Assembly (NCBI RefSeq): GCF_054482595.1
Contig: NZ_CM137008.1
Length of the DNA stretch: 64,000 bases
Reading direction: 5' to 3' (one strand)
Shown: positions 1 through 21,000 of the stretch, one piece after another
Layout: the number at the start of each line of letters is the position of its first letter
How positions within the stretch are numbered: position 1 is the first letter of the stretch
Made by a program: the position numbers

Positions 1-3000
1 TTAATGCTGGCTATTGTTGAAAATCACTGGCAGGACGCGCATTTCGACGCCTTTCAGGAGGGGTTGCTTTCTTTTACTGCGGCATTAACCGATTACAAAA
101 TTTATTTGCTGACGATCCGTAGCAATATGGATGTTTTGACGGGATTGCCGGGGCGTCGGGTTCTTGATGAATCCTTTGATCATCAGTTACGCAACACTGA
201 GCCTCTGAATCTTTATTTAATGTTGTTGGATATTGACCGATTTAAATTGGTTAATGATACCTACGGGCATTTAATCGGCGATGTAGTATTACGCACCCTG
301 GCAACTTACTTAGCCAGTTGGACGCGTGATTACGAAACGGTTTATCGCTACGGGGGCGAAGAATTTATCATTATTGTCAAAGCGGCTAATGATGAAGAAG
401 CATGTCGTGCAGGTGTCAGAATTTGCCAGTTAGTCGATAACCATGCCATCACACATTCTGAAGGGCATATCAACATTACCGTGACAGCAGGTGTGAGTCG
501 CGCATTTCCTGAAGAGCCTCTGGATGTGGTCATTGGAAGAGCAGACCGGGCAATGTATGAGGGTAAGCAAACCGGAAGAAATCGCTGCATGTTTATTGAC
601 GAACAAAATGTGATTAACCGAGTTTAAGCTCCGTTTAACATTCATTGAGAAAACTGATGCTACTGTGTCAACGATCCGTTATCAGTGCAGGAAAATGCCT
701 GTTAGCGTAAAAGCAAAACACAAATCTATCCATGCAAGCATTCACCGCCGGTTTACTGGCGGTTTTTTTTCGCCGTCATAAAAATCAGGCCCCTTGTACA
801 CAACTGTAACAAGGGGCCGGTTAGGTGAGGGATTATCTCCGTTCATTAGTCATCCCATTTGTGGCTGAAATACGCGGCCAGAAAACCAGAAAATAAAATT
901 ATTCCCAGTACGGCCATAAAAACATTCATATTACCCAGCATTATTTGCCTCCGTTTATGGTGTGGTGTGTTTCCTCGCTTACCTTAATTTTCATCTCAAT
1001 GAGAAAGATATTAGCAGAGGTAACCTAAACGAAGGCTGAATTAAATTTTTATTGTGTTCGACTTAAATCAACAAAGCGCGGGCTGCCCCCACGGTCTTGC
1101 ACGAATCCCTTTTAACATCAGCACCCACGCAGCAATGATCACCAACGCTAAGATGACAAACAGCGAGGAAGGCGGCAGGCTGGTTAGCACTACGCCACTC
1201 ACTAATGGGTTAATCGCGGCACCAAGCCAGCCTAAAGACTGGGCGGAAAAATAGCTGGCTTTCATTCCTGGCGGCGCAATATGGTCAATCAACATATACT
1301 CGCCCGGCGCATAAATGATTTCACCGACAGTAAATACCGCAGCTGACATACCCCACAATAGCAGGCTGTTGCCGGAAAAAATAAAACCGACCAGACCGAT
1401 GACGAAACATAGGGTGCCTGCTGTCATCAGCGCGCGGATGTTAGCCGGGTTAAGTCGGCGGCCCACGGAATATTGCAACGTAACCACCATGGCAGCATTC
1501 ACCGGAAGAACAACCGCGACCACCTTTTCGGCAAAATCCCCATCAGCAATCACCATCACATATTGTGAAATGCATGAAGCAAATGCGCCGCTTACAAAAG
1601 AAGCCAGAAAACCAGAGCAGGTAAACCACAACAGTGTTTTATCTTGTAATAAAACTTTCGGCGACCAGACACTGCCTGTTTCCGTGGCGATGATTTTCTC
1701 GCTGCGCTTTACCCAAATTTGAATGAAAAGCATGGGAAACGCGGAACAGATAGCTGCCAGCCAGAAGGGCAGATTGATGCTCTGCATCACCAACAGCGTG
1801 CCGAGCGGCGGACCGATGGTCCAGCCAATGTTTAGCATGGTGTAGTTGATTGAGAAGATTTTCGTTTTGCTGGTGGACGAAAGATTGTCGGCAAACCAGG
1901 CTTTCAGCACGGTAGCAAAAACAGAATAGGCGCAGTTAATGAGGGCAAAAAAGAGCACCACCAGCGTTACGTTATTCACTAAAGGAATGGCAATAAAACC
2001 GCTGGCGAAGGCGGTAATTGCCAGTAACATATAGCGTTTCTTGTCGAACTTATCCGCCAGGATACCAAAACCGAGGCTAAAAACGACGCCAATAGTGAGC
2101 GCAATTGTCATCGCATAACCGATTAGATCGACACTCAGGCTGTACTGGCGACTCAAGTAAATGGTCATAAATGGCAGCGTAGCGCCGCGTCCGATGGTTA
2201 ATAACAACGACGAGGCAAGAAGGGCGCTGGTAGAGCGTCGTAGGGATAAGTTCATTTGTCTGTCCGGCAGTGCGTTTCGTTATGTTTTGTTTTAGAGATG
2301 TAAAGAAATAGCATGGCAAAAATCCGAAGTATAGCGACTTATTTGCGCATTAATGCCGTCGTAACCGGCGACTAACGAATCAACTGTTAAAGAAAAGTAA
2401 ATTCAGCTAAGTTGATTGCTTACAAAAGATGAAATTCAGAGGCGGTAGAATGTCGCGAAAAGATGGGGTGTTGGCGCTACTGGTAGTGGTCGTATGGGGG
2501 CTAAATTTTGTGGTCATCAAAGTGGGGCTTCATAACATGCCACCGCTGATGCTGGCCGGTTTGCGCTTTATGCTGGTCGCTTTTCCGGCTATCTTTTTTG
2601 TCGCACGACCGAAAGTACCACTGAATTTGCTGCTGGGGTATGGATTAACCATCAGTTTTGCGCAGTTTGCTTTTCTTTTTTGTGCCATTAACTTCGGTAT
2701 GCCTGCTGGACTGGCTTCGCTGGTGTTACAGGCACAGGCGTTTTTTACTATCGTGCTTGGCGCGTTTACTTTCGGGGAGCGATTGCATGGCAAACAATTG
2801 GCGGGGATCGCCTTAGCGATTTTTGGCGTACTGGTGTTAATCGAAGATAGTCTGAACGGTCAGCATGTGGCGATGCTCGGCTTTATGTTGACCCTGGCTG
2901 CAGCATTTAGTTGGGCGTGTGGCAACATCTTCAATAAAAAGATCATGTCGCACTCAACGCGTCCGGCGGTGATGTCGCTGGTAATCTGGAGCGCTTTAAT

Positions 3001-18000: not shown

Positions 18001-21000
18001 ATTAATGCATGTACACCCCATTTCAACTTTCCGTTTGTTCCAGGAAGGTCATCTGCTACGTAATAGCATCGCTATTTTTGCGCTAACCACGCTGTTCTAT
18101 TTTATTGGTGCAGAGTTACGGCTGGTTCACGAACTTTCTCTTTTCTGGCCGCTGAATGGCGTAATGGCGGGGGTGTTTGCCCGCTATGTCTGGCTTAATC
18201 GACTGCATTACTATGCGATCAGTTATGTGGCGATGCTGGTTTATGATGCCATAACCACCGAATGGGGACTGGTTTCACTGGTTATCAATTTCTCCAATAT
18301 GATGTTTATTGTTACCGTCGCCTTACTGGTCGTGCGGGATAAGCGTCTGGGGAAAAATAAGTATGAGCCAGTAAGTGCCTTACGGCTATTTAATTACTGT
18401 CTGATTGCCGCATTATTATGCGCTATTGTCGGGGCGATTGGTTCGGTCAGTATTGATAGTCTGGATTTCTGGCCTTTGCTTGCGGACTGGTTCAGTGAGC
18501 AATTCTCAACGGGCGTTTTGATCGTGCCTTGTATGCTGACGTTGGCTATTCCTGGAGTGCTGCCGCGCTTTAAAGCAGAACAGATGATGCCCGCCATCGC
18601 GCTTATTGTGTCGGTTATTGCCTCGGTAGTCATTGGCGGAGCGGGGAGTCTGGCGTTCCCGCTGCCTGCATTAATCTGGTGTGCAGTGCGCTATACGCCG
18701 CAGGTAACATGTCTGTTGACCTTTGTCACCGGTGCGGTGGAAATCGTACTGGTGGCAAATTCGGTGATTGATATCTCGGTCGGTTCGCCGTTCTCCATTC
18801 CGGAAATGTTCTCCGCACGTCTCGGTATTGCCACGATGGCGATATGCCCAATTATGGTTTCTTTTAGCGTGGCAGCGATCAATTCGCTAATGAAGCAAGT
18901 TGCGCTGCGAGCCGACTTTGATTTTCTGACTCAGGTTTACTCACGGTCCGGTCTTTATGAGGCGCTGAAAAGTCCATCGCTGAAACAGACACAACATCTG
19001 ACGGTCATGCTGCTTGATATCGACTATTTCAAAAGCATTAACGATAACTATGGACATGAATGTGGCGATAAAGTGTTAAGCGTGTTTGCCCGGCATATTC
19101 AGAAGATTGTCGGTGATAAGGGGCTGGTGGCGCGCATGGGCGGCGAAGAATTTGCTGTTGCAGTGCCGTCGGTGAATCCTGTCGATGGTCTGCTAATGGC
19201 GGAAAAAATCCGTAAAGGCGTTGAACTGCAACCATTCACCTGGCAACAAAAAACGCTTTATCTCACGGTAAGTATTGGCGTCGGTAGTGGTCGCGCATCG
19301 TACCGAACGCTGACCGATGATTTTAATAAATTGATGGTCGAAGCCGATACGTGTCTGTATCGCTCGAAGAAAGATGGGCGCAACCGTACCAGCACTATGC
19401 GTTACGGTGAGGAAGTTGTCTGACATCTTTATTCATTCCGCGCGATTTGAATGCAATGTGTTCTACCACTTTATGATCCAGGAAAAGGCGTATTTCCTCG
19501 ATTAAACCATGATCCGCGCCACACTTTTCTCATAAAACTGCTCATTAATCATCAGGAGTTGATCAAAACAGGGGTTCGGCGTATTAAAGTTTGCTAACCT
19601 GTCGTACCAATTCAAACAGGTTGTATGACTAATCAGAAGGGAACCCATTGTGAAAACACTAAATCGTCGCGATTTTCCCGGTGCACAGTATCCAGAACGT
19701 ATCATTCAGTTTGGTGAAGGTAACTTCCTGCGCGCCTTTGTTGACTGGCAAATCGATCTCCTGAATGAGCACACCGATCTGAATTCTGGTGTGGTCGTTG
19801 TTCGTCCGATTGAAACTTCATTCCCGCCGTCACTGAGCACGCAGGATGGTCTGTACACCACCATTATCCGTGGCCTGAATGAGAAGGGGGAAGCGGTCAG
19901 CGACGCGCGTCTGATTCGCTCGGTTAATCGTGAAATCAGCGTCTACAGTGAATACGATGAATTCCTGAAACTGGCGCACAACCCGGAAATGCGCTTTGTT
20001 TTCTCTAACACCACCGAAGCGGGTATCAGCTACCATGCGGGCGATAAATTCGATGACGCGCCAGCGGTAAGCTATCCGGCAAAACTGACCCGTCTGCTGT
20101 TCGAACGCTTTAGCCATTTCAACGGTGCGCTGGATAAAGGTTGGATCATCATTCCGTGTGAGTTGATTGACTACAATGGCGACGCGTTGCGTGAACTGGT
20201 GCTGCGCTATGCGCAAGAGTGGGCACTGCCAGAAGCATTTATTCAATGGCTGGATCAGGCTAACAGCTTCTGTTCTACGCTGGTGGACCGTATCGTTACC
20301 GGTTATCCGCGCGATGAAGTGGCTAAACTGGAAGAAGAACTGGGTTATCACGATGGTTTTCTCGACACCGCTGAACACTTTTACCTGTTTGTGATTCAGG
20401 GACCGAAATCCTTAGCGACTGAACTGCGTCTGGACAAATATCCGCTCAACGTGCTGATTGTTGACGATATTAAACCGTACAAAGAACGCAAAGTGGCAAT
20501 CCTCAACGGTGCGCACACCGCGCTGGTGCCGGTGGCGTTCCAGGCAGGGCTGGATACCGTAGGTGAAGCGATGAACGATGCTGAAATTTGCGCATTCGTT
20601 GAAAAAGCTATCTACGAAGAAATTATTCCGGTACTGGATTTGCCTCGTGATGAACTGGAATCTTTCGCCAGTGCAGTCACCGGGCGTTTCCGTAACCCGT
20701 ACATTAAGCATCAGCTGCTGTCTATCGCGCTCAACGGTATGACCAAGTTCCGCACTCGCATCCTGCCGCAGCTGCTGGCAGGGCAGAAGGCAAAAGGCAC
20801 ACTTCCGGCGCGCCTTACTTTCGCATTAGCGGCTTTGATTGCCTTCTATCGCGGTGAGCGTAACGGAGAAACATATCCGGTACAGGACGATGCACACTGG
20901 CTGGAACGTTATCAGCAACTCTGGAGCCAGCATCGTGACCGTGTTATCGGCACCCAGGAACTGGTAGCGATTGTTTTGGCAGAAAAAGACCACTGGGAGC

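Follow-up and report, generated by a model that had tools for sequence, protein, structure and literature searches.

The diguanylate cyclase DgcF (YneF) has been described at full size in enterohaemorrhagic Escherichia coli (EHEC) O157:H7, enteroaggregative E. coli (EAEC) O104:H4, uropathogenic E. coli (UPEC) CFT073 and Shigella flexneri (Richter et al. 2014; Spurbeck et al. 2012; Ojha et al. 2024). The full-size protein was reported to combine a hydrophobic N-terminal domain of about 300 amino acids (aa) with an intact active site and to lack the inhibitory site, and a fusion of the full-size gene showed weak, RpoS-dependent expression; yneF of K-12 was found to be truncated at its 5' end by a deletion, which had led to misannotation of the start codon, and was not expressed in W3110 (Richter et al. 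2014, PMC4287979). CFT073 lacking yneF formed less biofilm on glycerol and adhered less to bladder cells, and a foreign cyclase restored both (Spurbeck et al. 2012, PMC3484386). In S. flexneri, dgcF raised the level of cyclic di-GMP, as measured by liquid chromatography-tandem mass spectrometry, and a GG-to-AA mutation abolished the rise (PMC11327459). Here, dgcF was analyzed in a stretch of 64,000 nucleotides (the window) from contig NZ_CM137008.1 of the assembly GCF_054482595.1. With high confidence, the gene in the window is the intact ancestral form, encoding a 472-residue inner-membrane diguanylate cyclase translated from the ATG at position 18005. An earlier note on this DNA had left the start undecided between 18005 and an internal methionine.

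Comparison of dgcF with described full-size genes

The gene and its catalytic part comprise the following features:

18005-19423, plus strand: dgcF (yneF) coding sequence, 472 codons plus stop, full-length allele (uninterrupted open reading frame, ORF; WP_000558044.1 of the Prokaryotic Genome Annotation Pipeline, PGAP)
18911-19387, plus strand: GGDEF catalytic domain, residues 303-461 (Pfam PF00990)
19139-19153, plus strand: GGEEF active-site motif, residues 379-383 (sequence)

Positions 16500-20500 matched 5420 of 5426 complete E. coli genomes and were 100% identical at the DNA level to several non-K-12 strains, among them S42 and O157:H16 Santai. Judged by these matches, the window is chromosomal DNA of a non-K-12 E. 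coli, in reverse orientation relative to MG1655. The product that PGAP assigned in the 100%-identical DNA, between yneG and uxaB, is the 472-aa 'sensor domain-containing diguanylate cyclase' WP_000558044.1.

The catalytic domain was recognized over the entire Pfam model (PF00990, E=2.4e-40, 138.4 bits against a cutoff of 23.8, model positions 1-161 of 161) and by TIGR00254 (130.5 bits, cutoff 37.4). Among 71 homologs, K343, N346, D347, H351, D355 and R377 were invariant or nearly so, and these are the same residues as in the pattern KNDHDR-GGEEF published for yneF (Spurbeck et al. 2012, PMC3484386). No RxxD inhibitory site was present by the GGEEF motif, the context of which reads GDKG-LVARM-GGEEF. 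The order glsB-yneG-dgcF was kept in E. fergusonii, Citrobacter and Enterobacter. Its position between yneG and uxaB and downstream of sad-glsB, together with its identity to annotated full-length DgcF, places the gene in the DgcF/YneF orthologous group. It is the same gene as that of the four pathogens named above, with which it shares the length of 472 aa, the hydrophobic N-terminus of about 300 aa, the GGEEF motif, the lack of an inhibitory site and the yneG-dgcF-uxaB position. No substantive difference from the published full-size DgcF was found, and the window allele is 100% identical to that of many sequenced strains.

In Enterobacter cloacae (L005, positions 4560-5525), two further genes, one for another cyclase (GAF-GGDEF, 321 aa) and one for an acetyltransferase, were located between dgcF and uxaB, and a methyl-accepting chemotaxis gene preceded glsB in place of sad.

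The N-terminal membrane domain

18053-18916, plus strand: N-terminal polytopic membrane domain, residues 17-304, ten predicted helices (AlphaFold2, MASE1 homology and the ratio of nonsynonymous to synonymous substitution, dN/dS)

Residues 1-300 of DgcF were strongly hydrophobic, with seven clear hydropathy peaks and weaker ones, and a loop rich in lysine and arginine (residues 111-131) fits a cytoplasmic location. An AlphaFold2 model built from a 71-sequence alignment had a mean predicted local distance difference test score (pLDDT) of 90.9 and a predicted template modelling (TM) score of 0.84. It placed ten helices within residues 17-304, the first of which (17-37) exceeded a pLDDT of 90 and the last of which (265-304) continued straight into the GGDEF domain; the N-terminal domain modelled alone reached a pLDDT of 87.4. 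A 472-aa product with a large polytopic, sensor-like N-terminus, as proposed in the earlier note, is borne out by the ORF, the hydropathy and the ten-helix model.

An exhaustive search of cluster representatives recovered the N-terminal domain in 404 clusters at E<=0.001, mostly proteins 460-490 aa long, with the match beginning at residues ~10-35 in query and match alike. This shared placement indicates that the N-terminal unit is old and that a C-terminal domain of about 170 aa is attached to it. The 71 aligned homologs carried GGDEF in all but one case (70 of 71), and Pfam MASE1 (PF05231) was matched at E<=0.01 in 48 of them, most below the gathering score. The consensus of the family, on the other hand, matched PF05231 at E=1.7e-11 with 44.2 bits (gathering cutoff 29.8), residues 21-249 aligning to model positions 3-250 of 299. 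A profile comparison by hhalign aligned DgcF residues 16-232 with the MASE1 domain of DgcE (14-232) at a probability of 84% (E=7.8e-6, 215 columns). The N-terminus of DgcF was assigned on this basis as a divergent MASE1-like sensor domain. Both DgcE and DgcF have a many-helix membrane N-terminus of about 300 aa ahead of a cytoplasmic signalling domain, but DgcF differs from MASE1 proteins such as DgcE in having no PAS or EAL modules, and E. coli DgcF scores no MASE1 match by itself.

The start codon of dgcF

17929-18004, plus strand: non-coding block conserved across genera (alignment of E. coli, E. fergusonii, C. amalonaticus and E. cloacae)

An in-frame TAA at 17999-18001 is the second codon before the ATG at 18005, and therefore a start upstream of 18005 is impossible. 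A search with residues 1-300 returned full-length orthologs of 472-484 aa from E. fergusonii, Citrobacter, Enterobacter and Lelliottia at a query coverage of 97-100%. Identity to residues 1-300 was as follows:

E. fergusonii: 88%
Citrobacter amalonaticus: 84%
Enterobacter and Lelliottia: 72-75%

The aligned orthologs all started at the methionine corresponding to 18005, and Phe9 was invariant. Residues 18-300 were conserved above the level of the catalytic domain, and residues 1-8 were variable. Substitution ratios of E. coli against E. fergusonii, C. amalonaticus and E. cloacae, in that order, were calculated by the Nei-Gojobori method; for codons 146-300, the ratio of uncorrected proportions (pN/pS) was used because synonymous sites were saturated in two of the three comparisons.

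Codons 18-145, dN/dS: 0.025, 0.087 and 0.115
Codons 146-300, pN/pS: 0.11, 0.13 and 0.22
GGDEF domain, dN/dS: 0.065, 0.10 and 0.11

The dN/dS of codons 18-145 was about equal to or below that of the catalytic domain. Along codons 18-300, pN/pS was 0.10-0.27, and by these ratios the region is under strong purifying selection. The 472-codon frame was retained in five divergent E. coli alleles, including those of BL21(DE3), E2348/69 and CE10, and wherever a full-length genome was inspected, PGAP gave a product of 472 aa. A start at 18005 is also consistent with where the MASE1 match and the AlphaFold2 model have their boundaries.

Several observations weigh against the intact membrane cyclase with its start at 18005. 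Codons 1-17 were poorly conserved, with a dN/dS of ~0.4 in all three comparisons, and form the sole relaxed stretch. The Shine-Dalgarno (SD) element before 18005 is weak (GGA, anti-SD duplex -3.0 kcal/mol). Concerning the domain, a Pfam scan of residues 1-302 gave no domain and no MASE1 match even at E<=10, hhalign against the MASE1 domain of UhpB gave no match (E=0.32), and a Foldseek search of the N-terminal model against the PDB reached at best E=0.52 with a TM score of 0.18, the model resembling no solved structure.

One alternative is a start downstream of 18005, either at TTG11 (18035) or at Met54 (18164), from a transcript without the ATG at 18005 that would arise at the promoter-like sequence TTGCCA-18-GATAAT (17973-18002). 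This sequence had the highest consensus score of the promoter scan (10/12), and residues 1-8 are variable, as such a start would allow. Its -10 hexamer, however, reads GCAATT in E. fergusonii, both Citrobacter and Enterobacter have GATATT instead, and promoter-like matches in the scanned region were at chance level (5 found against 3.8 expected). TTG11 has no SD element (+2.7 kcal/mol). Moreover, a downstream start would leave unexplained the invariant Phe9, the near-invariant protein sequence of residues 18-53 (dN/dS 0.03-0.12), the helix 17-37 modelled at a pLDDT above 90 and the MASE1 alignment from residue 21. We regard this alternative as extremely improbable.

None of the in-frame internal ATG, GTG or TTG codons before the catalytic domain had a better ribosome-binding site than 18005, as judged by anti-SD duplex energies. 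Internal methionines up to residue 284 all lie within the membrane domain, and Met296 is the only one able to give a soluble cyclase. Strong SD-like sites were found only before GTG375 and ATG378 (-7 to -10 kcal/mol), where starts would bisect the catalytic domain. A second product made besides the full-length protein, most plausibly from the ATG of Met296 (18890), would be a soluble enzyme of about 177 aa with the GGDEF domain alone, free of control by membrane signals. The position of Met296 immediately before the GGDEF domain would suit such a product, initiation is possible despite a weak or absent SD, and split or internally initiated products have been obtained from plasmid-expressed degenerate Shigella cyclase genes (PMC11327459). 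On the other side, Met296 is replaced by isoleucine in Enterobacter, Lelliottia and Citrobacter sp. NCU1, has an anti-SD duplex of just -1.8 kcal/mol and lies inside the long helix 265-304 that joins the membrane domain to the cyclase; the only strong internal SD sites would halve the catalytic domain, and no such product has been reported. Dual products are in our view very improbable, slightly less so than a downstream start. The text of a Ribo-RET paper on BL21, a strain with the full-length allele, makes no mention of yneF or dgcF.

The ATG at 18005 is the sole well-supported start of dgcF. The ambiguity raised in the earlier note dissolves, as the upstream stop, the aligned ortholog methionines, purifying selection, the conserved block, the domain boundaries and the PGAP calls all fix 18005. 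Conservation of the N-terminal region, which that note had named as a check, was found across E. fergusonii, Citrobacter, Enterobacter and Lelliottia and leads to the same start.

The deletion allele of K-12

17940-18437, no strand assigned: 498-bp interval present in the window and deleted in K-12-type strains (pairwise alignment with MG1655)
18476-18478, plus strand: TTG (Leu158), annotated start of K-12 b1522, 315 aa; an internal codon in the window (MG1655 record)

The 315-aa annotation exists because K-12 lost positions 17940-18437. The interval takes in 65 nt of upstream sequence and the beginning of the gene, from the ATG at 18005 through codon 144 to the first base of codon 145, and no microhomology was found at the junction in the alignment of the window with MG1655. 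The 3' 986 bases of K-12 dgcF (b1522) are near-identical to those of the window, with a handful of substitutions; unlike the window gene, the K-12 gene is without nearly all of the conserved upstream block, without the ATG, and annotated from a TTG. The removal of nearly all of the block by a deletion beginning at 17940 agrees with the absence of expression in W3110. The anti-SD duplex of TTG 18476 (-3.1 kcal/mol) was no better than background. Translated from this codon, the 315-aa form would start at helix six and keep five of the ten helices; according to the model, it would be neither intact nor cytoplasmic.

The allele classes were distributed among the 5426 complete E. coli genomes as follows:

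500-bp segment present: 4196
Exact 44-nt K-12 junction: 1216 (22%)

These two classes add up to 5412 of the 5420 genomes in which the locus is present. Junction carriers comprised laboratory K-12 derivatives and isolates from human, pig, chicken, crow, donkey, river and sea. The identical junction in many natural isolates implies that the deletion probably arose once, long ago, and spread within a natural lineage. In PGAP, the deleted allele is marked as a pseudogene ('incomplete; missing N-terminus').

That the K-12-type short product from TTG 18476 is the functional enzyme, with the upstream 157 codons dispensable or separately evolved, has next to no chance of being right, although the curated MG1655 record keeps the 315-aa coding sequence, 22% of the genomes have this part alone, and motility effects in some K-12 knockout studies are cited in PMC3484386. 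Between genera, no part of the protein is better conserved than the deleted portion, and the conserved promoter-like block is lost in the same deletion. Expression was absent in W3110 (PMC4287979), and PGAP calls a pseudogene. In a study of the 12 cyclases of E. coli, ectopic DgcF was alone among four membrane cyclases tested in not inhibiting motility (PMC10127611).

The short DgcF is a deletion remnant of the K-12 lineage and not the result of an alternative start, as has been in print since 2014. The internal methionine leading to a much shorter cytoplasmic product, as suggested in the earlier note, does not describe it: the published 315-aa form starts at a TTG, retains five helices and stems from the 498-bp deletion.

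The conserved block upstream of dgcF

17965-17973, plus strand: extended -10-like element TGAGATAAT (promoter scan, 9/12 matches with TG)
17971-17987, no strand assigned: palindrome AATTGC-N5-GCAATT, spacer CACCC (alignment; overlaps the -10-like element)
17990-18001, plus strand: mini-ORF ATG GAC AGA TAA, in frame with dgcF (sequence; ends 3 nt before the ATG at 18005)

From the yneG stop to about 17928, the DNA was non-coding and showed no conservation between genera. The block at 17929-18004 follows, within which the stretch from 17964 to the ATG (~40 nt) was invariant in the five divergent E. coli alleles. It is likely that the block comprises dgcF's own promoter and 5' untranslated region. 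The scan paired TGAGATAAT, which is conserved in Escherichia and Citrobacter, with ATGAGA (17944-17949) 18 nt upstream, implying a transcription start at ~17980; TGAGATAAT may be a promoter element. The arms of the palindrome were conserved in E. fergusonii and Citrobacter and partly in Enterobacter, and the spacer differed between genera. Conserved arms around a variable spacer suggest a protein-binding site, and the palindrome is a candidate operator. PtrR was considered as its binder and rejected, as the published motif TTCACGAATCGaGAA is unrelated. By eye only, TGAGAATTTACTTA was judged to resemble an RcsAB box.

The sequence ATATGGA (17988-17994) was conserved in all four genera, and its GGA, which lies inside the mini-ORF, is the only SD-like element before dgcF. 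The TAA of the mini-ORF is the in-frame stop that precludes a start upstream of 18005. Citrobacter and Enterobacter have a similar ATG-xxx-TGA at the position of the mini-ORF, and in E. fergusonii its frame is open and would permit a 5-codon N-terminal extension.

A terminator scan of the yneG-dgcF interval found none, and a PtrR preprint treats the four genes as one operon, yneIHGF. Transcription of dgcF would start from its own weak promoter within 17929-18004 and, on these two grounds, possibly also proceed by read-through from sad-glsB-yneG. A further reading takes the upstream block, with its palindrome and mini-ORF, as a dedicated regulatory switch, the N-terminus of DgcF as a MASE1 subfamily missed by Pfam, and N-terminal loss as niche-specific selection against the cyclase; jointly, these propositions are speculative and seem unlikely to us. 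If such a switch existed, a transcription factor or start-stop coupling could account for the near-silence of dgcF in the laboratory.

dgcZ and the surrounding genes

1-627, plus strand: 3' part of dgcZ, codons 89-296 plus stop, GGDEF domain with GGEEF (translation, NCBIfam NF007380, S42 annotation)
639-852, plus strand: STnc560 Hfq-binding small RNA (Rfam, 282 bits), directly 3' of the dgcZ stop

DgcZ (YdeH), a zinc-regulated cyclase, is soluble and binds zinc through an N-terminal domain. The window contains only the 3' part of its gene: the N-terminal 88 codons lie outside, the gene in S42 beginning 264 bases before the window, and the DgcZ equivalog model NF007380 matched at 372 bits (cutoff 256) over model positions 89-296 of 296. 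DgcZ and DgcF have in common the GGDEF domain with GGEEF and are unrelated outside the catalytic domain. The earlier note had described two cyclase genes, both with an intact GGEEF, bracketing the mar/sad region. The motif is intact in both proteins, within 1-627 in DgcZ and at residues 379-383 in DgcF, and the map order is correct, with mar and sad genes in between; dgcZ, however, is incomplete, with only codons 89-296 present. A functional meaning of the bracketing was dropped, as the genes are 17 kb apart, with about 20 unrelated genes between them and no shared regulation or operon structure.

In the annotation of the identical strain S42, the genes run in the order dgcZ, mgtT/mgtS, ydeE, eamA, a GntR/PTS/porin/6-phospho-beta-glucosidase island (PTS, phosphotransferase system), marBAR, marC, ydeA, yneK (frameshifted), ptrR, sad, glsB, yneG, the 472-aa 'sensor domain-containing diguanylate cyclase' and uxaB. 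The STnc560 match spans the position of the MgrR small RNA in MG1655 and is antisense to mgtT/mgtS. The island fills the eamA-marB interval (3394-9571, ~6 kb) with six genes, encoding a GntR regulator, PTS IIB, IIC and IIA, a carbohydrate porin and a 6-phospho-beta-glucosidase; it is absent from K-12 and present in 2563 of the 5426 complete genomes. The gene yneK (13034-14070, minus strand) is broken into two ORFs that overlap, 13034-13663 and 13612-14070; PGAP labels it a frameshifted pseudogene with the same split in S42, and K-12 yneK is intact. The longest ORF of sad begins at 15105 (listed under 15105-16517) versus an annotated start at 15129, and that of eamA at 2429 (listed under 2429-3349) versus an annotated start at ~2450; both offsets are ordinary differences in start choice.

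Discussion

The dgcF gene of the window is, by its reading frame, its conservation and its domains, an intact and selectively maintained gene for a protein that joins a membrane domain to a GGDEF domain with all catalytic residues. The MASE1-like domain may sense a membrane or periplasmic cue and control dimerization or activity of the cyclase through the connecting helix. Having no RxxD site, DgcF would be free of a product feedback limit.

Full-length DgcF and its truncation in K-12 are already known; this is an ordinary gene, and current understanding is not overturned. What is added here are the exact coordinates of the deletion, the population frequencies of the alleles, the dN/dS values, the structural model and the MASE1 link, by which the N-terminal domain is described slightly more precisely than in the published work. 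For annotation, caution is warranted, as the 315-aa DgcF of the K-12 reference is the stump of a deleted gene. Studies of DgcF based on K-12 or on clones of the K-12 ORF test a pseudogene, whereas the full-length enzyme is what is studied in EHEC, EAEC, UPEC and Shigella. The intact membrane-sensor cyclase is encoded in about three quarters of complete E. coli genomes, and in the window as well.

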